Positions 10,956-46,507 of a stretch of 54,932 nt of DNA are shown here, one piece after another. How positions within the stretch are numbered: the stretch's first letter is position 1; each line of letters begins with the position of its first letter. The translations under genes and the position numbers were made by a program. The notes under the pieces were generated by a model, which saw nothing but the letters and a program-made list of their open reading frames with translations, was not told the origin of the DNA and did no database searches. Source of the stretch: a virus (Duplodnaviria; Heunggongvirae; Uroviricota; Caudoviricetes); IMG/VR virus record IMGVR_UViG_2939147180_000006, positions 1-54,932 of that record; one strand, 5' to 3'.

Positions 10956-11083
10956 TTTTTCACCTTGTCATTTTGTGATCGCCGTCACGATAAATCATAC
11001 CAAAACGGTTGATCGCGATTTTTACAATATGTATATTGTACTCAAAAGGAAGCATGGTTAACAAAATGGCGCGGAGGTGTGAA

Positions 11084-12883: not shown

Positions 12884-13053
12884 GATTCCCCCTATAAGTT
12901 ACATATTGCATACATCTTTACGCGCTTCTACGCGAAAAATGAGAACTTTGTCACAAGAATTATACCCAGTTTACGAAATGGCTTCACACATGACGTGCCA
13001 AGTTGTATATAGAAATCAAGAAGAGAGAGCAGTACAAGCAAAGGAGGTCAAAT

Positions 13054-16161: not shown

Positions 16162-16200
16162 GATTTAACCTCATACGAAATGTGATCCATGTCTCTATTT

Positions 16201-16241
16201 TATACAAAATGGCTTCATTTCAACGAGTACATTTTGTATAA
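16201..16241. promoter_or_regulatory. Inverted-repeat motif TATACAAAATGG-N17-CATTTTGTATAA (candidate operator/promoter element)
   Basis: Read directly; the same half-site recurs in several other intergenic regions. Confidence 0.4.
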
Positions 16242-16318
16242 AGAAGATAAAGGAAAGGGATAGAGCGAAAGGATTTAAAAGGCCGGATTAACCGGAGGAA
16301 GCAAAAGAGGATAAGAAA

Positions 16319-16405
16319 ATGAAAAACTACTACCGACCCAACGAGCATGAGCGTTATACCGACTTCATCGAAGAAATGCTTAAAGCACTTAAAAATAAAA
16401 ACTAA
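16319..16405 (+). CDS. Possible small ORF (28 aa) at head of third moron operon
   Basis: AAGAGG RBS then ATG; MKNYYRPNEHERYTDFIEEMLKALKNKN; very short, uncertain. Confidence 0.25.
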   Translation: MKNYYRPNEHERYTDFIEEMLKALKNKN

Positions 16406-16417
16406 GCGGGGTGAGTT

Positions 16418-16768
16418 ATGAAACGGTTAATCAAAGCGGCGATGATGGCGGTAATGGTATGTTTAGCATTCAACGCCAACGCAGATAACAAGATTGATAA
16501 AGCGGAGCATGAATGCGCATTTGCCGCAGAAATATACGACTTAAAATACGGTGACGGTATGGGATACCTTGAGATTGTATATGACGCAGCTTGCAGGTAT
16601 AGGGCGGTAGTCCCGTTCCTTGGTGATGAAATTGCCGAAAAATTTAAACTGCACGAAAAATACAAAGATTTGGTAGACGGCATAAATGAACCTGAGCTAC
16701 TCAAAGCGGTTCGTGACGGCGAAGTTAAAGGATTCGCAATCCACCACAGAGTAAAGGCAGGCGTGTAA
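16418..16768 (+). CDS. Hypothetical secreted/periplasmic protein (116 aa) with N-terminal signal peptide
   Basis: N-terminus MKRLIKAAMMAVMVCLAFNANA has n/h/c-region signal-peptide character; RBS GGGGTGAG. Confidence 0.5.
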   Translation: MKRLIKAAMMAVMVCLAFNANADNKIDKAEHECAFAAEIYDLKYGDGMGYLEIVYDAACRYRAVVPFLGDEIAEKFKLHEKYKDLVDGINEPELLKAVRDGEVKGFAIHHRVKAGV

Positions 16769-16876
16769 ATGGAAACAATCAAAACTGTTATAGATGTATA
16801 TATTACAGCATGGTTAGCATTTAATATAATGGCTGTGCTAGTGCTGGCAATGACAACAGAAGATAAACGTAATTAA
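16769..16876 (+). CDS. Small membrane peptide (35 aa)
   Basis: TAAATG stop-start overlap with the previous gene; hydrophobic core ITAWLAFNIMAVLVLAM. Confidence 0.35.
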   Translation: METIKTVIDVYITAWLAFNIMAVLVLAMTTEDKRN

Positions 16877-16886
16877 GGAGTTCATC

Positions 16887-17189
16887 ATGGAAATGGTAAT
16901 TTTCTTTTGCGGATTCGTGGGAACTATGATTGTTGCCCAGAAAAGACATCTTAATATGCTCATGGCATTCATTGGCGCACTGATTTTTTGGCCTGCCGTA
17001 TTGATTTACGCACTGTGCGTTAACAAAAGGATGTTTAAACACTACGTCGATGCGGTGACTTTCGTAAGCATGGAGTTCCCTAACGCAACTGACGTACAGA
17101 AAGCACAGGTTGCAACTTACCTTTACGATAACGTGTACGATATTCATGACCTGGATGAGGCAAGATGCAGATTTGCAGCATACAAATAA
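16887..17189 (+). CDS. Hypothetical membrane protein (100 aa, two predicted TM segments)
   Basis: AGGAG RBS; hydrophobic segments VIFFCGFVGTMIV and LMAFIGALIFWPAVLIYAL. Confidence 0.5.
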   Translation: MEMVIFFCGFVGTMIVAQKRHLNMLMAFIGALIFWPAVLIYALCVNKRMFKHYVDAVTFVSMEFPNATDVQKAQVATYLYDNVYDIHDLDEARCRFAAYK

Positions 17190-30092: not shown

Positions 30093-30118
30093 AAGCAAAA
30101 ACCCGGCACGGGGCCGGG
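30093..30118 (-). terminator. tR'-like Rho-independent terminator immediately upstream of holin
   Basis: Minus strand cccggc-cccg-tgccggg hairpin followed by TTTTTGCTTTG, ending about 10 nt before the holin RBS. Confidence 0.6.
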
Positions 30119-30146
30119 TAGTTACAGTTTCGCATTGTTAGGTAAT

Positions 30147-30176
30147 ATTTTAATCTGTTTGTTTGCGCTCTACAAA
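30147..30176 (-). promoter_or_regulatory. Candidate sigma70 late promoter (pR'-like): TTGTAG-17bp-TAAAAT
   Basis: Read on minus strand; promoter, ~45-nt leader and terminator precede the holin as in the lambda pR'-tR' arrangement. Confidence 0.45.
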
Positions 30177-31547: not shown

Positions 31548-31859
31548 TTAAAACTCCGCACCAGGTAAGCTACGCGCTTTATTTACCGCATCTTGTTTTA
31601 ACAACAAACTGGCGTGATAACTCATGTTCAACATATTGACAGCGGGTATTCCATCATTTTCCGACTTTATTCTTAACAACTGGTTTTTAGTAAAGATCCT
31701 GTCACCATCAGTTATATATAACCAGTCTCCGCGCTTACCAACTACAACATGAGATCCACCCCAACTGTCTTTAAATTCGTAATTACAGAAAACATCACCT
31801 TCAGGCACTTCAACAAAACAGCACGCTATGAATTTATCGCTTTTCATGATTTTGCCCAT
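31548..31859 (-). CDS. Hypothetical protein (103 aa)
   Basis: Track ORF; preceded by intergenic region carrying regulatory motifs. Confidence 0.4.
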   Translation of the reverse strand: MGKIMKSDKFIACCFVEVPEGDVFCNYEFKDSWGGSHVVVGKRGDWLYITDGDRIFTKNQLLRIKSENDGIPAVNMLNMSYHASLLLKQDAVNKARSLPGAEF

Positions 31860-31876
31860 CAGTCTTTCGGTGGCTT

Positions 31877-31940
31877 ATATATAACAAAACGGCACTGCCG
31901 AAACAATGCCATTTTGTATACATTGTGATAAAGATCACAT
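31877..31940. promoter_or_regulatory. Regulatory region: inverted motif TATATAACAAAACGG-N16-CCATTTTGTATA plus CRP-consensus palindrome TGTGATAAAGATCACA
   Basis: Read directly; TGTGA-N6-TCACA at 31925..31940 matches the CRP core consensus. Confidence 0.45.
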
Positions 31941-31976
31941 TTTTATTTATTCATTAAAATCAACATTATAACGCAA

Positions 31977-32189
31977 TTAATAACGCTCGAAGCTGGCGGA
32001 AAAATCAATACTTGATATCTCACCGCCTCGATAAGTAGGCCAAAAACGCCAAATATCATCATGGTCATCAATCAAGACAACATCAGTACCTATTCTGTAA
32101 CCATCATTACCATAAATGACCTTAACATCATAAGTACGCCCAGGAGTAAAAATACTCTCATTGCTTGAGTATATGCATTTAACTTGCAT
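31977..32189 (-). CDS. Hypothetical protein (70 aa)
   Basis: Track ORF in island. Confidence 0.35.
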   Translation of the reverse strand: MQVKCIYSSNESIFTPGRTYDVKVIYGNDGYRIGTDVVLIDDHDDIWRFWPTYRGGEISSIDFSASFERY

Positions 32190-32466
32190 TGTCAGCCACC
32201 TTTAAATAATTTTTCGTGTCAATATCTGCCGGATACCTGGAAAATTGCGCAAGCCATTGTCCGGTAATGTTTTTCACCAGTGCATAATCAAGATCGCCGC
32301 AGTAGAATACCTGGTACATTGTCCCTTCGTTATCATCCATAACAAAGACCATTGGATCGGTAGTCGCATTGCGCAGCCTGTGAATCGTGTAAGCCTGGCC
32401 AGTAGTGAATTTGTACTCGTTACACGTTGTGCGGCAAAACATCCGGTCAAAATAGCTTTCCATCAA
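32179..32466 (-). CDS. Hypothetical protein (95 aa)
   Basis: Track ORF in island. Confidence 0.35.
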   Translation of the reverse strand: MMESYFDRMFCRTTCNEYKFTTGQAYTIHRLRNATTDPMVFVMDDNEGTMYQVFYCGDLDYALVKNITGQWLAQFSRYPADIDTKNYLKVADNAS

Positions 32467-32729
32467 AAAATCCCCTTATAATCGACCGTGTATTTTGCTA
32501 TTAGCTTCCATTCACAATAGCTTTCCATGTCTCGCGGTTGCCAGCCTTTCATGCCTACAGCACCACGCACGCCGTGGCGACGATAATTATCGTTATAGTC
32601 AGCTACACACCACGGCTGAAGCACAAACATGTAATTGGCCTCGTTAACCAGGATCGCCATCTGCTTTCCTGTTGCCTTATCTTTCGCCCGGAAATAACTT
32701 ACCCTGATTTTCATTTTTAATAACCTCAA
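32463..32729 (-). CDS. Hypothetical protein (88 aa)
   Basis: Track ORF in island. Confidence 0.35.
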   Translation of the reverse strand: MRLLKMKIRVSYFRAKDKATGKQMAILVNEANYMFVLQPWCVADYNDNYRRHGVRGAVGMKGWQPRDMESYCEWKLIAKYTVDYKGIF

Positions 32730-32925
32730 TCAACATTTCTTCTTCCAGGTTGGCAGGACGTTTACGGAATATGCCAGCAAAAACCAAATCGTCCAGGTGC
32801 CCCCTGGTGCAAAACAGCTTTTCTTCCCTAACCCCGTCAGAATCGCACCTGTAAGTCTTATCGTTGATCAGAAAGTAAAAGCTACAGAATGAAGGGGCCA
32901 GGTAAACATCTTCGTAAACGTCCAT
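32677..32925 (-). CDS. Hypothetical protein (82 aa)
   Basis: Track ORF in island. Confidence 0.35.
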   Translation of the reverse strand: MDVYEDVYLAPSFCSFYFLINDKTYRCDSDGVREEKLFCTRGHLDDLVFAGIFRKRPANLEEEMLIEVIKNENQGKLFPGER

Positions 32926-32929
32926 GATG

Positions 32930-33172
32930 TTAACCCTCGACTACTTCCAGACCGCGCCCCTTGTCGCCCACGAAGTCGGCAAGGCTGAACGTATACGACC
33001 ATGCCGGATTGATGTAATGGTCATCAGCGCCAGCGGCAATGAGGTCAGCACCGTTAATCATGCAAGTGACACCATCACTATGAACGACGTTAACCACCTT
33101 ACCAACAACCTGTTTTAATGATGGATAACCGTGATCGTGCAAGAATTTGACTTTCACTCTTCTGTCCCCCAA
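32930..33172 (-). CDS. Hypothetical protein (80 aa)
   Basis: Track ORF in island. Confidence 0.35.
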   Translation of the reverse strand: MGDRRVKVKFLHDHGYPSLKQVVGKVVNVVHSDGVTCMINGADLIAAGADDHYINPAWSYTFSLADFVGDKGRGLEVVEG

Positions 33173-33393
33173 CGCTCAATACTGATTAAGAAGTCCCGGA
33201 TAGCGTGTCGCTCGTCGCGCGTTGGTTTGCGCTTACGGTAGATCCTGAAATCGAACCATTCTTTTTCCTGCTCAAAATCCAGGTCGTAAGCAAGCGCCTC
33301 AATGTATCCGCATTCGTGATACCAGTACGCCACGCCAGCACGAACAAAAAAGCGGGTTTTATCCCGCTTGTGCTCATAGATACGCATATTCAC
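33154..33393 (-). CDS. Hypothetical protein (79 aa)
   Basis: Track ORF in island. Confidence 0.35.
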   Translation of the reverse strand: MNMRIYEHKRDKTRFFVRAGVAYWYHECGYIEALAYDLDFEQEKEWFDFRIYRKRKPTRDERHAIRDFLISIERWGTEE

Positions 33394-33399
33394 CCCCCG

Positions 33400-33630
33400 T
33401 TATGCAGTTGTGTAGCTGTCCACCAGCTTTTCATCTTTCATTCTGGCAAGCTGATCGGTGTTCATCGTGTAGCCACCATCAGAGAAAAGCAATTCAGCCG
33501 CAGCGCGACGAAAAGCAATATCATCATGGTTACGTGTCCATGTAGCGATCACAACGCGTTTCCCGTTAGTGGCGAACATAGACAATTCATTATCAACTAC
33601 GTCGATAGCCTGCCAGATTTTTAGCTCCAT
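33400..33630 (-). CDS. Hypothetical protein (76 aa)
   Basis: Track ORF in island. Confidence 0.35.
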   Translation of the reverse strand: MELKIWQAIDVVDNELSMFATNGKRVVIATWTRNHDDIAFRRAAAELLFSDGGYTMNTDQLARMKDEKLVDSYTTA

Positions 33631-33986
33631 GATTTATCTCCGTAGATCTTGAATAGTTCACACGCTTCCTGATTTTCAAATATATTCATATGCAGGTCAC
33701 GCAGGCGGCGCATTGTGCGGAATCGCGGCCTGAACTCCTGGCTACGTTTAATGTATTTGCCGCCAATTGAATAAATATGCCCGTATGCGTACCATCTGTT
33801 ACCTACCCATATGTCATATTCTTTTCCTTCGTAATTGAATTTTATCGTTAGCTCGCCGACTTCAACTATTAACCCTTTATCAATGATGTCATTAAGCATT
33901 TCATCCCATTCTTTGAGGAATGGTTGTTGATAAAAACCAAAAAGCGTATTCACAGCATGACAAAGATAATCAATGATTATTTGCAT
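33621..33986 (-). CDS. Hypothetical protein (121 aa)
   Basis: Track ORF in island. Confidence 0.4.
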   Translation of the reverse strand: MQIIIDYLCHAVNTLFGFYQQPFLKEWDEMLNDIIDKGLIVEVGELTIKFNYEGKEYDIWVGNRWYAYGHIYSIGGKYIKRSQEFRPRFRTMRRLRDLHMNIFENQEACELFKIYGDKSWS

Positions 33987-33990
33987 ATTA

Positions 33991-34203
33991 TCACCACATC
34001 ATATAATAAACGTTCTCGTCAGCTAACATGTCAGCTACATCCTGCGTCATGTGTCTGGCCTCAAGGAAATATTCCTCACTATGCCATTCCCTTACAAGCA
34101 TACGCGCCCATTTACGGCGCTGGCGCTTATTGCGTCGCAGATCATCAAAAGCCTTTAATGCTTTGTCATATGCCCTTACAAGGCGCTTGCGGTTACTTTT
34201 CAT
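33991..34203 (-). CDS. Hypothetical basic protein (70 aa)
   Basis: Track ORF; Arg/Lys-rich. Confidence 0.35.
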   Translation of the reverse strand: MKSNRKRLVRAYDKALKAFDDLRRNKRQRRKWARMLVREWHSEEYFLEARHMTQDVADMLADENVYYMMW

Positions 34204-34206
34204 ATC

Positions 34207-34542
34207 TTAAAACCTATATTGCCAATAAATATCGCAGTTAATAGCAAAAACCTTAACAGGATCGTCACCAAATAAAGGATGTTGAATCGTCTTGATTGTG
34301 TACCCCATATAAGGAAGAATCAGTATTCGTTCTCTATCGTCGTTTGCAGGGTATCCCCATTTAAGAATCAATCTTGTATATTCCCTCCCCTCCAGGCGTT
34401 TACGCCAATAGTCATTATAAAGCCTGTATTCCTCCACCTTCTTTCCCGCCCGTATAGCGTGGAAGTATTCTCCTTTTAAATTCAAATGTAAGTGCTTATT
34501 TGCCATCACTATGATCCTGTAAACAGTCGTTATAGCCTTCAA
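34207..34542 (-). CDS. Hypothetical protein (111 aa)
   Basis: Track ORF in island. Confidence 0.4.
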   Translation of the reverse strand: MKAITTVYRIIVMANKHLHLNLKGEYFHAIRAGKKVEEYRLYNDYWRKRLEGREYTRLILKWGYPANDDRERILILPYMGYTIKTIQHPLFGDDPVKVFAINCDIYWQYRF

Positions 34543-34801
34543 TGTATCCGGTTAATCCGGTGTTACTCACTGACCATTCAGCCGAACGGCGCTTGATGGC
34601 CTTGTCCATAGTCATTTCACCTTTGCGGTGACATCCTGCATCAATGTAACGGTTGACAACTGAAGACAACCGTCCGCGTAGCTGTTGTGTTCCAGCGTAA
34701 TGGTGTGCCGTTTCCGTTAATTCGTTAACCAGTTTTGCAAATAGATGTTCCTTTAATTTAGGCTTCATTGTCGTCAACCTCGAAATACTGCTTAATAGCA
34801 C
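34496..34801 (-). CDS. Hypothetical protein (101 aa; likely starts at MKPKLKEHLF)
   Basis: Track ORF; alternative internal start reduces overlap with the upstream gene. Confidence 0.4.
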   Translation of the reverse strand: MLLSSISRLTTMKPKLKEHLFAKLVNELTETAHHYAGTQQLRGRLSSVVNRYIDAGCHRKGEMTMDKAIKRRSAEWSVSNTGLTGYIEGYNDCLQDHSDGK

Positions 34802-35105
34802 GTTTGACGTTCATTTCACGCTGATAATTGTTATCGCTATAGATTGCGGCTGCCGATACGTGATCGATAATTTGCTGTAATAAATCAGGATGAATTTTTA
34901 TTTTTTCATCAAGGACAATGCGAGATGGCTTATGTGCTGTAGCAATATCATTAACGATTTCTATCTCACCACCGCCGCCGCAGCGAGGACAAACGAATTT
35001 ATCACCTTGATACAGCATGAAGCCGCAACCTTTTTCAGTTTTTACGACCATACCATCGTCGTCGCAGTTTTCGCAATACAGCCACCCAATATTAATTATT
35101 TTCAT
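34758..35105 (-). CDS. Hypothetical zinc-ribbon protein (CxxC...CxxC)
   Basis: Start trimmed to MKIINIGWLYCENC; Cys pairs CENC and CPRC. Confidence 0.4.
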   Translation of the reverse strand: MKIINIGWLYCENCDDDGMVVKTEKGCGFMLYQGDKFVCPRCGGGGEIEIVNDIATAHKPSRIVLDEKIKIHPDLLQQIIDHVSAAAIYSDNNYQREMNVKRAIKQYFEVDDNEA

Positions 35106-35298
35106 TATCTTTATTCCGTCCGTAAATATGTACTGGCTCAACTGGTACGGCTGGCAATTCACCATCATTTAACGCGCTTGCCATACCCAATATTAATCGT
35201 GCTTCCGCACCAGTGACTTTCTTACACCATGCACCGCCAGTTTTATCTTCGAACAAGATAACAGCAAACTGATCGTTTATTTCCAGCTTATCCATCAT
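35092..35298 (-). CDS. Hypothetical protein (68 aa)
   Basis: Track ORF; 4-nt overlap with the Q-like gene. Confidence 0.35.
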   Translation of the reverse strand: MMDKLEINDQFAVILFEDKTGGAWCKKVTGAEARLILGMASALNDGELPAVPVEPVHIYGRNKDNENN

Positions 35299-36017
35299 TC
35301 ACCCCGCGTCACTCTTTTAATTTCGTTATCTGCCAGCGCCTCTTCTTTGAACAATTCAGCAATGGCGTCTTCATAGAAAGCCCGGTACTTTTTCCACCAT
35401 GTTGATCGGCTTACCGGAAAAACAAGCTGATTAACCGCCTGCCGTACAAGATCTACAGGGAAACGCGAGTACCCGCGCCCGCCGCAATGCTGGCACGTTT
35501 TGAACACTGGCATTTCCGCCGCTTCACTGGCTGCTTTATCCGGTACTTCGCCACGGCCCTTGCATTGTTTACAATGATTGCGAACTGTCCCATGCCCCTT
35601 GCATTTCTTACAAAGGTGTTTTTCTCCGTAGTCGTCAAACGTAAATTTATATCCGCCGCACTCCATACAAGTTTTTTCCGTCGCGGCACTCTGGCAATAA
35701 TCCCGAAACGCGAAAACGGCAACAAGAATAATGAGATCATTGCGTTTGGCCTCGTCCAGTTCCATAACGTATTCATAATCTTTTGCCATAGCCCTTAAAC
35801 GCTCTGTAAGCAAAACTACGGCCTTATGTTTTTCGGCTTGTGATAGTTCCATCTTCCCTAAAAAAGCGCTGTAACCAAGCTCTACGCGCGATTGCGCCAT
35901 GCCTGCTGCAGTTAGTGCATCCGTAGTATTAAGAGCATCCGGGGACGTGCCCCGGCTTTCATCTGACAAACGAGGTGATTTTGGGAAGTGGAATTTCAGA
36001 ATTGATTCCAGATTCAT
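35295..36017 (-). CDS. Putative late antiterminator Q-family protein with DnaJ-like CxxCxGxG zinc-finger repeats
   Basis: 240 aa directly downstream of ninG and rusA (canonical Q position); repeats CMECGGY, CKKCKGHG, CKQCKGRG, CQHCGGRG; family assignment from memory, unverified. Confidence 0.45.
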   Translation of the reverse strand: MNLESILKFHFPKSPRLSDESRGTSPDALNTTDALTAAGMAQSRVELGYSAFLGKMELSQAEKHKAVVLLTERLRAMAKDYEYVMELDEAKRNDLIILVAVFAFRDYCQSAATEKTCMECGGYKFTFDDYGEKHLCKKCKGHGTVRNHCKQCKGRGEVPDKAASEAAEMPVFKTCQHCGGRGYSRFPVDLVRQAVNQLVFPVSRSTWWKKYRAFYEDAIAELFKEEALADNEIKRVTRGE

Positions 36018-36211
36018 TATTTACCCCCGTAACGCGCAACCAGTCTTTTGCGATCAGATATTGCCTGCACTAGCTTTCTTTCAAGCTCTTTAAGTGCAAG
36101 CAATTCTCGCATGTGAAAAGCCTGTATTTGTCGCACAGTCTCTAAATCATGCTCATCGTGCTGAATATCTATTTGCAGATCTTTAATTTCGTTTTTCATT
36201 TCTAACCCCAT
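36017..36211 (-). CDS. Hypothetical protein (64 aa)
   Basis: Track ORF between rusA and the Q-like gene. Confidence 0.35.
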   Translation of the reverse strand: MGLEMKNEIKDLQIDIQHDEHDLETVRQIQAFHMRELLALKELERKLVQAISDRKRLVARYGGK

Positions 36212-36603
36212 ATATTCGTTGCGTATTCGTCAATATCCGGTAGTAGGTCACCGCGCTCGCGTACCTTAATAAACAATCGACCGCCTTTTACCTTCCGGCA
36301 GCGAACAATTTTTATAGAATCGATCTGCCCGTCGTCGGTCCAGAATCCAGCGTAAGTAAGGCTGTCAAAAAGGCATTTGGGGATATTATCCAGATCTCTG
36401 ATCCGGTTATCCGGCGGCGCGGCATAAATGGCTATTGCCAGTCGGCAAGATAGGTTGATGTTTAAATTTAATAGCTCGATGATGTCTCTTACCTGTTCCC
36501 TGTATTCTTTACCAACCTTGCTGATATAGTGAAAACCGCGTGAATGACGGTAATATCGGTTATTAGATGGTGGGTAAGGTAGGCTAAATGTATATTCGTT
36601 CAT
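36202..36603 (-). CDS. rusA: RusA-family Holliday junction resolvase
   Basis: 133 aa; N-terminus LPYPPSNNRYYRHSRG, then RDLDNIPKCLFDSLTYAGFW and KGGRL closely match E. coli RusA from memory. Confidence 0.85.
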   Translation of the reverse strand: MNEYTFSLPYPPSNNRYYRHSRGFHYISKVGKEYREQVRDIIELLNLNINLSCRLAIAIYAAPPDNRIRDLDNIPKCLFDSLTYAGFWTDDGQIDSIKIVRCRKVKGGRLFIKVRERGDLLPDIDEYATNIWG

Positions 36604-37205
36604 GCTGCCTTTCTCCTTAAGGCGTCCAATTTAGCCTGATAAACTTTTATGATCTCCTTGCATTCTTCGATCGTCCATTTGTGCGTATCATTGTTGTTCT
36701 CCAGTGCTACCACCCTGGCCAGGCCAATTTTTCGAATCAGTGCCGGGCGATACCCTCCGATGTTGCCGTCTAATGTCTGGTTGCAGTGCCTGCATTGTTT
36801 GTGACAATTATCCTCATTGAAGCGAAGGTGTCCGGCGGCTGCTACCGTTCTATAGTGTCCGGCATCCCATGAACATTGCTCGCCGTAGTAAGTGCCGCAT
36901 GATATACACGGCAAACGAGCGTCACGCTCGCGGATATATGCATTAAATACCGCTTGCGCCTGCTTGATCCAGTAACTACGCGGATTTAACTGTTTCCGCT
37001 TCCGGTTGCGTTCTTCCCGCTGGCTGTCGCGGCGTTTCTTCCGTTCCATAGCCTTCATAGCCTTCTCACGGTCGCGGCATAACTGGTCAAACTTCAGTTC
37101 TTCCAGACATTCGTCACTGCACCACGTTTGATTGTGATATTTAGGCTCAAAAAAAACGCCGCAGCACTTGCAACGGCGTCTTATGGGTTTTTTAGGGTTC
37201 TGCAT
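36600..37205 (-). CDS. ninG: NinG / Rap-like recombination-associated protein
   Basis: Cys-rich protein (CKCCGVFF, CISCGTYYGEQCSWDAGHYR, CRHCNQ) directly upstream of rusA; start trimmed to MQNPKKPIRRR. Confidence 0.7.
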   Translation of the reverse strand: MQNPKKPIRRRCKCCGVFFEPKYHNQTWCSDECLEELKFDQLCRDREKAMKAMERKKRRDSQREERNRKRKQLNPRSYWIKQAQAVFNAYIRERDARLPCISCGTYYGEQCSWDAGHYRTVAAAGHLRFNEDNCHKQCRHCNQTLDGNIGGYRPALIRKIGLARVVALENNNDTHKWTIEECKEIIKVYQAKLDALRRKAA

Positions 37206-37243
37206 AAAAACCACCCCGATTATTTTTGATTCTCTGTTTCGTT

Positions 37244-37396
37244 CAGCCTTTCGGCGTGTCCGGCCCTTAGCCAATGTTCTAAACATTCGTTGCACTCGTT
37301 ACAGCCTCCTTTCTTAGTGCTGCATACATTACACATTGCACGCATGACGCTTTCTCGCTCATAGTCGTCATGCCATTGGTAATCATCAAAAGGCAT
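37244..37396 (-). CDS. Small zinc-ribbon protein (50 aa) upstream of ninG
   Basis: Manually translated MPFDDYQWHDDYERESVMRAMCNVCSTKKGGCNECNECLEHWLRADTPKG; AAGGAGAG RBS. Confidence 0.4.
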
Positions 37397-37473
37397 AATG
37401 CTCTCTCCTTTTCAGGTGATTTATACGCATTTCAGCGCTGCCGGATTTTTAAAGAGCATTTGTTTGCTTGAAG

Positions 37474-37552
37474 TATACAAAATGGATACGTCATAACAAG
37501 CTGAAAAGCGCCATTATGTGATCCGTATCACACAATGACGCCATTTTGTAAA
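37474..37552. promoter_or_regulatory. Regulatory region: TATACAAAATGG and CCATTTTGTAAA in inverted orientation flanking CRP-consensus palindrome TGTGATCCGTATCACA
   Basis: Read directly; TGTGA-N6-TCACA at 37517..37532; intergenic between C5-MTase-like gene and ninG block. Confidence 0.45.
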
Positions 37553-37554
37553 CT

Positions 37555-38337
37555 TCAGTCAGGCAAAACACGGTTAAGCGTAGTACGATTGATGGCCCTG
37601 TCGTTAGCCAGGAATACAGCACGGGCAAAGCCGCGCGGCGTTAGCGAGCGGATCATCTTTGTTCGTTTCGTCCGGCCTCCAGTTTTAGACCATCCCGGGT
37701 TATCACCAGAGTTAAGATCTACAGGTCTGAAAAGCGGTTGTTTAAATCCGTTACCGCACCAAATACAAGTTTTCTTTGTATACGCGTCGCGCGACGGGTA
37801 AACATCCTGGAAAGCAGGATGCTTGTCATCTTCCGGCAGGTAGCCACCGTAAGCGCAAGGATTAAAGATAAAATCCGGTTTACGCCATAACGTTGACAGT
37901 GCGCCCACCGGATTTTCCACCATCCACGGCACGTTATACATATTTGCCAGTTTTTCTACAATTTTTGCGTTATACGCCGCCTTTACCTGGAAGCCAGGAT
38001 CTTTTTTTCGCTTATCAGCGAACCAGCGAGCGCCAGACACAGCGAGATCGTCGCATGGAGGAAAGCCCAAGATAATGTCAGGCTCTGGATAAACAGACAA
38101 TTCAGGGGAGAACATTACCAGGAAATGGCTGTCAATCCATACGTTAACATATTCAATATTCGGATGAATGATTTTAACGCCTTCATAATCGCCGTGGTTT
38201 GCGCCGTCATAGTTGAAGCAATAGCACTTATATCCAGCATCCGCCCAGTCTTTAACGGCATATCCGCTGCCGTCGTACAGCGACCACACAACCCAGCTTC
38301 TAAGCCAATTATTTAACCAGTGTTTAGCCTTGCTCAT
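37555..38337 (-). CDS. Putative DNA cytosine-C5 methyltransferase (compact, divergent)
   Basis: 260 aa; motif-I-like SLYDGSGYA, motif-IV-like GFPPCDDLAVSG, motif-VI-like WMVENPVG; target-recognition region short. Confidence 0.5.
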   Translation of the reverse strand: MSKAKHWLNNWLRSWVVWSLYDGSGYAVKDWADAGYKCYCFNYDGANHGDYEGVKIIHPNIEYVNVWIDSHFLVMFSPELSVYPEPDIILGFPPCDDLAVSGARWFADKRKKDPGFQVKAAYNAKIVEKLANMYNVPWMVENPVGALSTLWRKPDFIFNPCAYGGYLPEDDKHPAFQDVYPSRDAYTKKTCIWCGNGFKQPLFRPVDLNSGDNPGWSKTGGRTKRTKMIRSLTPRGFARAVFLANDRAINRTTLNRVLPD

Positions 38338-44504: not shown

Positions 44505-44795
44505 TTAATGGTAACGGACTTTATCAAGGGGTTTTTCCCCTAAATGGCGTGGTTGCGTTGCGTGGTAGTAGTTGCCGCTTTCATTTTCCGTATACCATTT
44601 TACTGCTCCTTTGCGACGTTCTTTAATGCTATTTGGTTTGCATCTTTCCTCGTTTGCAAAGCGAATAGCTTTATCCACATTGTCTGTTTTATTAATTGCA
44701 GGTGATGATTTTCTTTCGTTTTCTCTTTTTATTCTTCTGCGTTCCCTGGCATTCAGTTTACTGTCACATTTGCCATACATGATTGTAACTGTCAT
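44505..44795 (-). CDS. Putative N-type antiterminator (P22 gene 24-like) with arginine-rich motif
   Basis: 96 aa; N-terminus MTVTIMYGK...NARERRRIKRENERK (ARM-like); first gene downstream of the pL-type region. Confidence 0.5.
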   Translation of the reverse strand: MTVTIMYGKCDSKLNARERRRIKRENERKSSPAINKTDNVDKAIRFANEERCKPNSIKERRKGAVKWYTENESGNYYHATQPRHLGEKPLDKVRYH

Positions 44796-45267
44796 GATCT
44801 GATCTCCTTATATCCTTGATGATACTTAATAAAAAATCATCTTCGTTAATTGCCGCACTTCCAGCGGCTGACCAGATTGTTAAAGAATGGCTTAACATCT
44901 TTCAACTAATCCCGCAATCATCGCCGTTTCCGGTGTGACCCTGCTCACTCCAAGCAAGCTGACTTGTCGCCTTGCGTGCGGTTTCGTGGGGGATGTAACG
45001 CTTTAAACACCCCATGCGCCTTGTTATCAGTGCCGCTTTCGGTCCCCCATCGGGGAGTTACTCCACGGTTGACAAGGTGTTAAGCCTGATTTTTAAAGTG
45101 CCAGGAAGGTGCTTTTTTGTTTACTGCCTCCTTCCTTTGATTCGCAATATACGCCCTGTGATATGTCGAGTCAATCCATTTTGTATACTTTTTAAAAAAA
45201 TTTTATATCTTATTGATATTTAAATGATAAAACTGTTTTTTTGTTTACGTTTTGGCGTTTTTGGTGG

Positions 45268-45298: not shown

Positions 45299-45946
45299 TT
45301 ATGGCAGGTTTACGATCTTCGCATCCACTACCACGCCTATGATTTTAGATTCTGGATTCATAGGGATTGGCGGATACAGCGGATTGAGAGAACGTAAAAG
45401 CCTTTGACCTCCATCAATAACAAGCTGTTTAAACGTAGGAGTTTGCCCTTCCTCCAGTTGGGCTATAACCAGTTTTCCGTCAATAGCTGGCGCGTGCGGA
45501 TCGACAAGTATCATCGTCCCCGCTGGTATACTCAATCCTTGCGGCGCGTTCATTGATTCTCCTTTAGCCACCAGCCAATAACTATCATCTGAACAAATAA
45601 CGCTAGTTGTAACGTGTGGTAATGTTGATCGCCTTGCATCTTCCATATTGTTTACTGCATCCTTCCAGTCAACAACCGGGTAACTGCCTAAATCACGCGG
45701 TGGCGCTCCCGGTAACGTGTTAGAAACAGAATCATCTATGACCATCCCATCATGTGTGACAGTGAATTGCCGACGCCCAAGCGCCCGCATAATCCGCGCA
45801 ATATCTTCAAGATTTGGCTCACGGCGACCGTTCAGCCAGTGCGACAAGCCGCCTTTTGTTATCCCCATGAGATCAGCCAGTGAATCCTGACTCATGCCCT
45901 GCGCCCGCATGAGTTGTTTTGCCAAGTCATACCATTTTGTTTTCAT
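45299..45946 (-). CDS. cI: CI/C2-type prophage repressor (HTH_XRE plus S24 LexA-like peptidase)
   Basis: 215 aa; N-terminal HTH QDSLADLMGITKGGLSHWLNG; C-terminal GESM...FKQL Ser/Lys dyad; C-terminus KIIGVVVDAKIVNLP as in P22 C2. Confidence 0.85.
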   Translation of the reverse strand: MKTKWYDLAKQLMRAQGMSQDSLADLMGITKGGLSHWLNGRREPNLEDIARIMRALGRRQFTVTHDGMVIDDSVSNTLPGAPPRDLGSYPVVDWKDAVNNMEDARRSTLPHVTTSVICSDDSYWLVAKGESMNAPQGLSIPAGTMILVDPHAPAIDGKLVIAQLEEGQTPTFKQLVIDGGQRLLRSLNPLYPPIPMNPESKIIGVVVDAKIVNLP

Positions 45947-45949
45947 GTC

Positions 45950-46100
45950 GCTACCCTATAAGCTAAAAAAGTTTGATGCAAGTCACAAAATGTATTTTTC
46001 AATCCTTGACCTGTTAACGCCATTCTGTAAACTTGCAGACAAGGTAAGTCCATACTTGCAAGGATGCAAGAAAAAAGATAATGGAAAGCACAAAAGGAAC
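45950..46100. promoter_or_regulatory. Immunity-region operator/promoter region (OR/PR/PRM equivalent) with CTTGCA/TGCAAG palindromic half-sites
   Basis: Divergent intergenic region between repressor and rightward operon; repeated CTTGcagaCAAG, aCTTGCAAGg, gaTGCAAG; TTGACC -35-like hexamer. Confidence 0.4.
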
Positions 46101-46252
46101 ATACCTTAAAAGCTCTTTAAAAATCCGGTGTCGCTGCGAAGCGAAAAACAAATATCACGCAACGGCGGGATCTGTTGAGCGGTCAGTCACTGCTATCTAA
46201 TGCTAATTGGATGCCCGCCAGCGCGTTCACTCTAACCATAGGAGAAAACACG

Positions 46253-46507
46253 ATGAGCACGAACATGATTAACAAAGCATGGAACGTAAAACTTAACAGC
46301 CCGATTCAAAAACTAGTTTTAATCTCCCTTGCTGAGACGGCGGATAGCCAGGGGCGGACAAGCGTATCACGCGAAGAAGTAGCAAAAATGTGTGAACTTC
46401 CTGTTCATACGGTACATGATGCCTTCGCCGCATTAATTAGCAAAGGGTTTGTTTGCCGTATTGATGCGTTTAGTGGTGTCTATGTAGTTATGTTGCCGGA
46501 GGAATGA
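46253..46507 (+). CDS. Winged-helix DNA-binding protein, first gene of rightward early operon
   Basis: AGGAG RBS and ATG at 46253 (table ORF has an N-terminal extension); HTH-like segment TSVSREEVAKMCELPVHTVHDAFAALISKGFV; not lambda-Cro-like. Confidence 0.45.
   Translation: MSTNMINKAWNVKLNSPIQKLVLISLAETADSQGRTSVSREEVAKMCELPVHTVHDAFAALISKGFVCRIDAFSGVYVVMLPEE

Follow-up and report, generated by a model that had tools for sequence, protein, structure and literature searches.

Candidate CRP-type activator sites on a repeated promoter module of an mEp021-like temperate coliphage

The 54,932-nucleotide (nt) caudoviral record IMGVR_UViG_2939147180_000006 (positions 1 to 54,932, hereafter the window) contains two palindromes of the form TGTGA-N6-TCACA, the core of the binding site for the enterobacterial cyclic AMP (cAMP) receptor protein, CRP. 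We propose that they are class-I activator sites of the host cAMP-CRP type, carried on a promoter module that recurs in the phage genome, and we put the chances that this proposal is right at about even. The pattern TGTGANNNNNNTCACA has exactly two matches in the window, TGTGATAAAGATCACA at 31924-31939 (site 1) and TGTGATCCGTATCACA at 37517-37532 (site 2); each agrees with the core at 10 of 10 positions, as a preliminary description had claimed with the first placed one base off (31925-31940, not 31924-31939), whereas only 0.03 such cores are expected and none of 100 dinucleotide-preserving shuffles reached two. Site 1 lies between open reading frames (ORFs) 31548..31859(-) and 31977..32189(-), and site 2 between the dcm-annotated ORF 37555..38337(-) and ninF 37220..37396(-). 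In minus-strand orientation, small genes leading to the lysis cassette lie downstream of site 1 and ninF-ninG-rusA-Q lies downstream of site 2, and both sites adjoin a recurrent 12-mer, TATACAAAATGG, one copy of which (31909-31920, minus strand) is 3 nt from site 1 and further copies of which flank site 2 at 37474-37485(+) and 37541-37552(-, TTTACAAAATGG); these surroundings, too, are as first described. The suggestion that the phage might encode a CRP-like protein of its own was not borne out, since tblastn of E. coli CRP against the window gave chance matches only (best E 0.27), a search that remote homologues could escape; with no phage CRP homologue found, the host protein is the simplest binder. 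The sequences, statistics, geometry, conservation, and hairpin energies given below were computed; start sites, CRP binding, activation, and termination are what we infer from them.

Between 31 and 38.5 kb the window is 88-92% identical to seven phage records (MagusPhagus, mEp010, mEp013, mEp021, mEp044, mEp515, and mEp554), and MagusPhagus is collinear with the whole of it; judged by these alignments, the window is an mEp021/MagusPhagus-like (mEpimmI) temperate coliphage. Human faeces are the source of the mEpimmI phages, temperate, Nus-dependent, non-lambdoid coliphages that were recently described as a family-level group and are reported to be common there, as common as lambdoids (PMC11893012).

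Sites 1 and 2 are the strongest members of a larger CRP-type set whose other members lie at 10974, 12940, 16181, and 45972. The four best matches in the whole window to the 22-bp CRP consensus, AAATGTGATCTAGATCACATTT, start at 31921 (site 1, 18/22, its left half as read on the minus strand matching at 11/11), 16178 (16/22), 37514 (site 2, 14/22, core 10/10), and 12937 (14/22, core 9/10); all four are intergenic and adjoin a copy of the 12-mer, the scan as a whole gave 14 matches against 5 in shuffles, and in MagusPhagus the same positions come out on top, together with one at its Lpp moron. The fifth site (22-mer at 45969; TTTGA...TCACA) is upstream of the PL-like promoter and the sixth, TGTGATCGCCGTCACG at 10974, stands before another module, and over all six the core match is 8-10 of 10 bases. 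The 12-mer is itself over-represented in the window, with nine matches at up to one mismatch against 0.51 expected, and 12 matches to its looser form YACAWAATGK against 1.5 expected.

The six sites share a predicted promoter geometry. The proposed module would read, 5′ to 3′, CRP-type dyad, 12-mer or variant, -35 hexamer, 16-17-nt spacer, and TATAnn -10 hexamer (at site 1, on the minus strand, AAATGTGATCTTTATCACA-atg-TATACAAAATGG-ca-TTGTTT-17-TATATA), and the distances from dyad centre to -35 (Table 1) put all six dyads on one helical face, at 24.5-27 nt after one turn is subtracted and within about 1.3 bp of each other; in lac P1, counted likewise, the distance is 25 nt. Class I CRP-dependent promoters of E. 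coli have CRP centred at -61.5 (the lac P1 type), and also at -71.5 and -82.5, on the same helical face. With 17-nt spacers the phage dyads fall at about -60.5 to -62.5 and -70.5 relative to starts predicted by consensus near 31871(-), 37465(-), 11044(+), 13018(+), 16249(+), and 46040(+), the 12.95k site, centred 35 nt from its -35, falling in the -70.5/-71.5 class. The -35 hexamers are weak (TTGTTT, TTGTTA, TTCATT), as expected of activator-dependent promoters, and the promoter at 37.5 kb was also found independently by a promoter consensus scan. In sum, the phage sites resemble those of E. coli class I promoters in core, in agreement of up to 18/22, in a centre 25 nt (in one module 35) from the -35, and in having one strong and, in most relatives, one weaker half-site, as many natural CRP sites do; they differ in that they belong to a repeated module, on a phage genome, with direct and inverted 12-mers, and that one doubles as the tip of a hairpin. 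Host cAMP-CRP acting at class-I positions would account most simply for the six sites: for their agreement with the consensus outside the core, their shared face of the helix, their weak -35 hexamers, and their unequal half-sites, and for no phage CRP homologue having been found.

Gene context is consistent with promoter function. The modules at 10.97k, 12.95k, and 16.2k each stand before a plus-strand cassette that has good ribosome-binding sites and is inserted in the minus-strand late (tail) operon; cassettes so placed need promoters of their own, and the modules are the only candidates in the short gaps. The 16.2k module is predicted to drive the moron cassette at 16320-17189, upstream of the tape-measure gene, and the 12.95k module the small plus-strand genes from 13054.

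Table 1. Coordinates and particulars of candidate modules, associated RNA elements, and neighboring genes in the window
Feature	Coordinates	Strand	Particulars
Site 1, CRP-type palindrome	31924..31939	-	TGTGATCTTTATCACA; 22-mer AAATGTGATCTTTATCACAATG; core 10/10; centre to first base of -35, 25 nt
12-mer at site 1	31909..31920	-	TATACAAAATGG; ~-49..-38 of site-1 promoter; also 5′ arm of hairpin 31880-31922
Site-1 promoter (predicted, sigma-70)	31878..31906	-	TTGTTT (31906..31901), 17-nt spacer, TATATA (31883..31878); start near 31871; conserved in 18 relatives
RNA hairpin at site 1	31880..31922	-	ACAAAAUGGCAUUGU-UUCG-GCAGUGCCGUUUUGU; -20.4 kcal/mol, z -5.6; promoter embedded
Site 2, CRP-type palindrome	37517..37532	-	TGTGATACGGATCACA; core 10/10; 22-mer 14/22; centre to first base of -35, 25 nt; apex of hairpin 37507-37542
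Hairpin at site 2	37507..37542	-	16-bp stem, ACGG loop; GGCGUCAUUGUGUGAU-ACGG-AUCACAUAAUGGCGCU, then UUUU; starts 13 nt past dcm stop codon
12-mer copy at site 2	37541..37552	-	TTTACAAAATGG; just past dcm stop codon; can pair with inverted copy 37474-37485
37.5k promoter (predicted)	37472..37499	-	TTGTTA (37499..37494), 16-nt spacer, TATACT (37477..37472); start near 37465; -10 inside inverted 12-mer 37474-37485
nutR2	37425..37458	-	boxA GCTCTTTAAAAATCCGG; boxB GCGC-U-GAAA-U-GCGU (GNRA-type); invariant in relatives
Third module (16.2k)	16181..16242	+	Degenerate CRP-type site TGTGATCCATGTCTCT (16181-16196; 22-mer 16/22; core 8/10; centre to first base of -35, 25 nt); 12-mer (16201-16212); -35 TTCATT (16214); -10 TATAAA (16237); inverted 12-mer (16229-16240)
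Fourth module (12.95k)	12940..13011	+	TGAGAACTTTGTCACA (12940-12955; core 9/10; centre to first base of -35, 35 nt); 12-mer variant TTTACGAAATGG (12970-12981); -35 TTCACA (12983); -10 TATATA (13006)
Fifth module (10.97k)	10974..11037	+	TGTGATCGCCGTCACG (10974-10989; core 9/10; centre to first base of -35, 27 nt); CCAAAACGG; -35 TTGATC (11009); -10 TATATT (11032); upstream of plus-strand gene starting near 11075
PL-like early promoter	45972..46033	+	CRP-type site TTTGATGCAAGTCACA (45972-45987; core 9/10; centre to first base of -35, 26 nt); -35 TTGACC (46006); -10 TAAACT (46028, inside CCATTCTGTAAAC); then nutL (46110-46146)
PR-like promoter	45146..45187	-	12-mer TATACAAAATGG (45187..45176); TTGACT (45174..45169), 17-nt spacer, TATATT (45151..45146); upstream of nutR1 and N-like gene
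CI-like repressor	45299-45946	-	HTH_3 and Peptidase_S24
N-like Gp17 homologue	44505-44795	-	
dcm-annotated ORF	37555-38337	-	Cytosine methyltransferase in relatives
ninF	37220-37396	-	Downstream of site 2
ninG	36600-37295	-	Downstream of site 2
rusA	36202-36603	-	Downstream of site 2
Q, lambda-type antiterminator	35295-36017	-	PF03589; downstream of site 2
Late promoter candidate	30175..30147	-	PR′-like, TTGTAG-17-TAAAAT; directly upstream of holin gene
Strong terminator	~30119..30095	-	ACCCGGCCCCGTGCCGGGTTTTTGC; ~30 nt past late promoter; homologue of mEp021 TERM_5

Conservation in related phages, proposed at the outset as a check, gave a mixed answer: the spacing and one half-site per family are kept, but perfect cores are in the minority. 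The refuting outcome named there, sites missing from close relatives whose flanks are otherwise conserved, was in part observed. Specifically, i) in 18 distinct relatives of site 1 the module is conserved from the dyad to the -10 and starts exactly at the dyad, the distal half AAA[T/C]GTGATCT is kept in most, and five carry 12 nt, AAATGTGATCTA, identical to the left half of the CRP consensus; ii) among 28 distinct variants of site 2, drawn from 37 loci (the seven phage records and IMG/VR contigs), G5, G7, and A8 of both halves are invariant, as are nutR2 and the stretches CTTGTT and GTATCCATTTTGTATACTT of the -35/-10 region, the first base of the proximal arm is A in 25 and G in three, and change is found in the four central bases, which are hypervariable, in the six bases after the stem, and in the five after the -35, the remaining columns, apart from the first base of the distal half, being invariant or nearly so; iii) TGTGATC is invariant in the 16.2k family, some variants of which read TGTGATCTAGATCT; and iv) the 12.95k family keeps [A/G]TCACA with hardly any change. 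The dyad to -35 spacing is constant in the compared relatives of all families, one site-2 length variant (L012, one base shorter) being left unplaced.

Several points weigh against CRP as the intended binder. The first base of the distal half of site 2 is C (CGTGA) in 22 of the 28 variants and T in six, and only 6/28, MagusPhagus among them, have a perfect core; the proximal half of site 1 has the perfect TCACA in only five of 18 relatives, mEp554 and mEp044 included, and is degenerate in the other 13 (TCGCA, CCGCA, TTACA, TCACG, ACACA, or CAGCA); mEp021 has no site-1 module at all; and in the 16.2k family the right half is TCTCT, CCTCT, or TATCT, while in the 12.95k family the left half is never TGTGA (it is TGAGA-like). 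The positions -60.5, -62.5, and -70.5, reckoned with 17-nt spacers, differ from the textbook -61.5 and -71.5 by roughly one base, and all the promoters are consensus predictions, some of them chosen with the motif positions already known. The six modules are probably paralogous copies, and therefore not six independent observations. The placement of the 12-mer, ahead of -35 hexamers in one orientation, across -10 hexamers in the other, and at each of the two immunity promoters, is closer to that of an operator than to that of an UP element. Finally, the site-2 palindrome runs 10 bp beyond what CRP needs, and a hairpin alone would explain both its symmetry and its variable centre.

One of the degenerate forms deserves a remark of its own. 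The site-1 homologues of L010, L018, L037, L040, and L041 have TCGCA in place of TCACA in the proximal half, which is the signature of Sxy-dependent CRP-S sites (TGCGA-N6-TCGCA); this may be coincidence.

The objection from the site-2 hairpin leads to a reading in which structure is all that matters: site 2 would be the top of a conserved hairpin, t4, that acts on the early-right transcript between dcm and ninF as intrinsic terminator, 3′-end stabiliser, or processing site; a recombination joint beside another terminator hairpin would have left site 1 as a short inverted repeat; and the likeness to CRP sites would be incidental, with no consequence for regulation. We regard this as somewhat unlikely, although for site 2 much speaks in its favor. 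On the minus strand, which is the transcribed one, the site-2 hairpin has a folding energy of -23.2 kcal/mol (z -6.2), as against -13.7 kcal/mol for the plus strand; its homologue in mEp021 is annotated in GenBank (MH706966) as the predicted terminator TERM_4 and listed as ‘predicted t4’ (PMC11893012); variants of the hairpin still fold at -23 to -28 kcal/mol; its stem runs 10 bp past the CRP core; its variable centre befits a loop; and perfect CRP cores are not conserved in relatives. Single changes in the stem (U.G to C.G, G.U to A.U, and U.A to U.G) fit minus-strand pairing, but no double compensatory change was found among the 28 variants, three have disruptive changes, and the majority form (22/28) has a C.A mismatch, a pattern that neither proves nor disproves an RNA function. 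The U-tract, UUUU followed by CAG in the window and UAUU, UUUA, or CAUU in relatives, fails the terminator scan rule of at least 5 T in 8; so short and variable a U-tract makes the hairpin, although real and conserved, doubtful as a canonical terminator. At site 1 structure can claim the neighboring hairpin, whose counterpart is annotated as an ARNold terminator (T10/T7/T8) in mEp554, mEp044, and mEp010 and in which all substitutions among relatives are compatible with wobble pairing, but not the palindrome itself, which on its own folds at only -4.6 kcal/mol (z -1.3, not significant) with no U-tract on the transcribed strand; structure therefore does not explain site 1. Moreover, AAATGTGATCT is conserved at site 1 while the other arm decays, although a hairpin needs both arms, and structure leaves unexplained the non-palindromic sites at 10.97k, 12.95k, 16.2k, and 45.97k as well as the -35 distance that they share.

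The symmetry of site 2 may have another source. Its hairpin arms are themselves degenerate copies of the 12-mer (ATCACATAATGG matches TATACAAAATGG at 8/12 positions and TCATTGTGTGAT matches CCATTTTGTATA at 7/12), and the CRP-like dyad may therefore derive from a tail-to-tail pair of 12-mers. The outer 12-mer copies at 37541-37552 and 37474-37485 can also pair, in a 92-nt fold of -36.7 kcal/mol. An ORF of 37 amino acids is annotated across the gap from hairpin through promoter to nutR2 in MagusPhagus (CDS0096), mEp554 (mEp554_44), and mEp010 (L003 16504-16617, L004 183-296, and L005 183-296); in the window the frame (ATG GCG CTT TTC AGC TTG TTA TGA) stops after seven codons, and we therefore treat the gap as non-coding and the small ORF as probably spurious.

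On the minus strand the dcm-ninF gap reads TTTACAAAATGG, hairpin, UUUU, promoter, boxA/boxB, and ninF ribosome-binding site. The nutR2 boxA GCTCTTTAA is at 37449-37457 and boxB at about 37425-37439, 60-95 nt downstream of site 2 and about 10 nt past the predicted start of the 37.5k promoter; the palindromes themselves are not nut sites, nutR2 being separate and downstream of site 2. The published nutR2 of mEp021 lies downstream of the cytosine methyltransferase gene (PMC11893012), which is the position found here, and the site-2 hairpin, as the direct homologue of TERM_4, likewise has its counterpart there, although in mEp021 the core is CGTGA...TCACA and the U-tract UAUU. In PMC11893012 the hairpin figures as no more than a predicted terminator; CRP is absent from its text, where the word ‘promoter’ occurs only once, for the Ptac vector promoter. 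The ORF upstream of the gap, 37555-38337(-), encodes 260 amino acids and is labelled DNA cytosine methyltransferase in mEp021, MagusPhagus, and RefSeq prophages; a Pfam search with it gave no match at E 0.01 or better. A 17-mer, GCTCTTTAAAAATCCGG, is common to nutL (46110-46146, plus strand) and nutR2, followed in each by a short GNRA-loop hairpin (CGCU-GCGA-AGCG and GCGC-U-GAAA-U-GCGU); it is also present in short contigs of Buttiauxella, Cedecea, Dryocola, Trabulsiella, and Mangrovibacter, possibly in boxA regions of ribosomal RNA operon leaders, and a scan for it with one genome per species gave 120 mostly unrelated loci, none with the module.

If host cAMP-CRP is indeed the binder, high cAMP-CRP would raise transcription from all six promoters preceded by a dyad: three for plus-strand moron cassettes in the tail region, those of sites 1 and 2, and the PL-like promoter. 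Site 1 would serve the small genes between Q and the lysis cassette, while the site-2 promoter would read through nutR2 into ninF-ninG-rusA-Q, and both accessory-gene expression and the supply of Q would follow the carbon status of the host. Because the predicted site-2 promoter reads straight into nutR2 and ninF-ninG-rusA-Q, the coupling of Q to cAMP-CRP raised in the preliminary description makes a coherent model. Site 2 would have a second role as the tip of t4 on the early-right transcript, where it would end or attenuate transcription arriving from the dcm side before the new promoter and nutR2, and, with a promoter so close to nutR2, the polymerases that set out toward Q would be loaded with Gp17. 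The 5′ part of ninG also contains a terminator-like hairpin (CGTTGCAAGTGCTGCGGCG, then TTTTTTTT) at 37157-37175(-); Q expression from promoters in the dcm-ninF gap would therefore depend on antitermination, and the hairpin would keep the 37.5k promoter harmless without Gp17.

PMC11893012 does not define the promoters and operators of mEpimmI phages and states no rationale for their third nut site, which a predicted third early promoter directly upstream of nutR2 would explain. Should the model hold, Q supply, transcription of the PL operon, and moron expression would respond to cAMP-CRP, the phage would offer a compact natural set of six class-I-type promoters of graded site quality, and in a gut phage the influence of nutrient status on lysis, lysogeny, and conversion genes would become open to direct and inexpensive experiment; should it fail, the site-2 element would simply be the predicted t4 hairpin and the finding an ordinary one. 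Class-I CRP promoters, CRP-regulated phage promoters, and the annotations of the site-2 hairpin and nutR2 are already known; what appears to be new is the six-member CRP-type set with lac-like geometry, the predicted promoter before nutR2, and the repeated promoter-in-hairpin module at cassette borders.

There is precedent for CRP on coliphage promoters, as here predicted. In phage T1 the promoters of pir, dam, and recE are under direct control of host cAMP-CRP, by which the decision to lyse is linked to the uptake of sugar (PMC6737242). The T1 case is experimental, belongs to another phage family and promoter architecture, and is one of repression, whereas the geometry found here suggests activation. 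Compared with the nin region of lambda, in which tR2-tR4 lie between P and Q and are read through by N, the window likewise has ninF-ninG-rusA-Q past a hairpin or terminator, a dependence on the N-like Gp17, and a Q of the lambda type; unlike lambda, it has an extra nut site, nutR2, right before ninF, and a predicted extra promoter with a CRP-type site.

A dimeric protein other than CRP, from phage or host, might instead recognize the GTGAT-N4-ATCAC dyads and/or YACAWAATGK and switch the whole promoter set together, candidates being the CI-like repressor, a Cro-like protein, and the winged-helix protein encoded at 46253. We think this decidedly improbable, although it would make sense of the over-represented 12-mer family, of its copies at both immunity-region promoters (PR-like, 45176-45187; PL-like, 45984-45993 and 46020-46031), and of their operator-like placement in both orientations, upstream of -35 and over -10. 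The proximal arm of site 2, as an 8/12 variant of the 12-mer, and the PL-like site GTCACAAAATGT, which fuses the two motifs, point the same way; promoters reading toward Q must stay harmless in a lysogen; and the operators of Rep021 are stated to be unknown in PMC11893012. However, the PR-like promoter has an A/T-rich tract upstream in place of a GTGAT...ATCAC dyad; the dyads agree with the CRP consensus outside the core as well, reading AAATGTGATCT(A) and, in relatives, TGTGATCTAGATCT, an agreement that for an unrelated protein would be coincidence; no CRP/FNR-like gene was found in the window; and a repressor operator would silence the morons in lysogens, which is unusual for morons. Nor are the dyads placed as CI/Cro-type operators, since there is none at the PR-like promoter and the sole copy in the immunity region (45972-45987) falls near position -61 of the PL-like promoter instead of overlapping it.

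In three modules (16.2k, 31.9k, and PR-like) the 12-mer itself comes immediately before the -35, at about -49 to -37, and elsewhere it is differently placed; an inverted copy covers the TATAnn -10 in three (16.2k, 37.5k, and PL-like), with a degenerate form at 31.9k. Its A-rich core resembles a proximal UP-element subsite, at which the C-terminal domain of the RNA polymerase alpha subunit would dock. In a comparison by eye with consensus sequences, neither sigma-54 (-24/-12), nor IHF, nor an extended -10 element fits across the module copies.

It has also to be considered that the modules, as composites of promoter and stem-loop, persist mainly as patches of homology for the exchange of cassettes, a reading that does not exclude the others and that we hold to be very improbable as the principal explanation. 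Site 1 lies at the one place in this region where collinearity with MagusPhagus is interrupted (window 31851-31977), and its 18 relatives keep the module while the flanks upstream of the dyad are unrelated and, in some, the downstream genes differ; the 16.2k module is followed in relatives by at least six different leader or cassette sequences. Composites of promoter and stem-loop in several copies per genome also answer to the definition of the PeSL elements of T4-like phages (PMC4122927), short conserved intergenic sigma-70 promoters with a stem-loop, multi-copy and at the borders of variable cassettes (PMC4122927, PMC2839356), which the 16.2k and 31.9k modules resemble in these respects and the 37.5k module does not; the window differs in being a temperate siphovirus, where the T4-like phages are myoviruses, in bearing no sequence relation to the T4 elements, and in having an upstream activator-type dyad in the cassette. 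Homology patches, however, need no set sequence, so that the CRP match and the fixed -35 distance would go unexplained, and the site-2 module is not at a variable junction at all, being found between the core genes dcm and ninF in 37/37 loci.

The host-CRP proposal can be combined with cassette exchange in a bolder form, which we think unlikely as a whole: a mobile cassette, in which a sigma-70 promoter embedded in a hairpin is combined with a CRP site and the 12-mer TATACAAAATGG, would be the standard promoter unit of mEpimmI phages, wiring morons, the PL-like operon, and nutR2-ninF-ninG-rusA-Q to host cAMP-CRP and doubling as a homology patch for exchange of accessory cassettes. If that were true, host carbon status in the gut would gate both lysogenic-conversion genes and commitment to late expression.

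The site-1 junction also varies downstream of the promoter. In mEp554, mEp044, mEp010, and MagusPhagus the promoter is followed by a gene of 41-46 amino acids (MNANAKYPAWVFELY..., MNANAKYPAW...) that is deleted in the window, where the promoter is fused directly to ORF 31548..31859; the same deletion is found in the IMG/VR relatives L018 and L030.

The early-right genes of the window are on the minus strand, and some 25 small genes follow Q before the holin gene near 30.1 kb. Site 1 is ruled out as the Q-dependent late promoter, because a PR′-like promoter and a strong terminator, whose mEp021 counterpart t5 (TERM_5) is listed as experimentally demonstrated, sit directly before the holin gene. 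Q would thus act about 5 kb downstream of its own gene, across those small genes, on a late promoter and terminator that in lambda adjoin Q. A search of the whole window with Rfam at gathering thresholds found no known RNA family. A PRM-like promoter, TTAACA-17-TACATT, upstream of rep is not conserved in MagusPhagus and was not relied on.

Four of the CRP-type dyads contain a GATC (Dam) site, at 31933-31936, 37520-37523, 16184-16187, and 10977-10980, and the phage carries a gene annotated in relatives as an N6-adenine methyltransferase; methylation state could affect protein binding at these four dyads. The leader of the PL-like promoter contains a perfect 6-4-6 palindrome, CTTGCAAGGATGCAAG, at 46055-46070(+), an element partly conserved in MagusPhagus, with related half-sites GATGCAAGT and ACTTGCAGACAAGGT nearby (45977-45985 and 46031-46045); there are no such elements at the PR-like promoter, and the palindrome and its half-sites may serve the CI-like repressor as operators or be bound by another protein.

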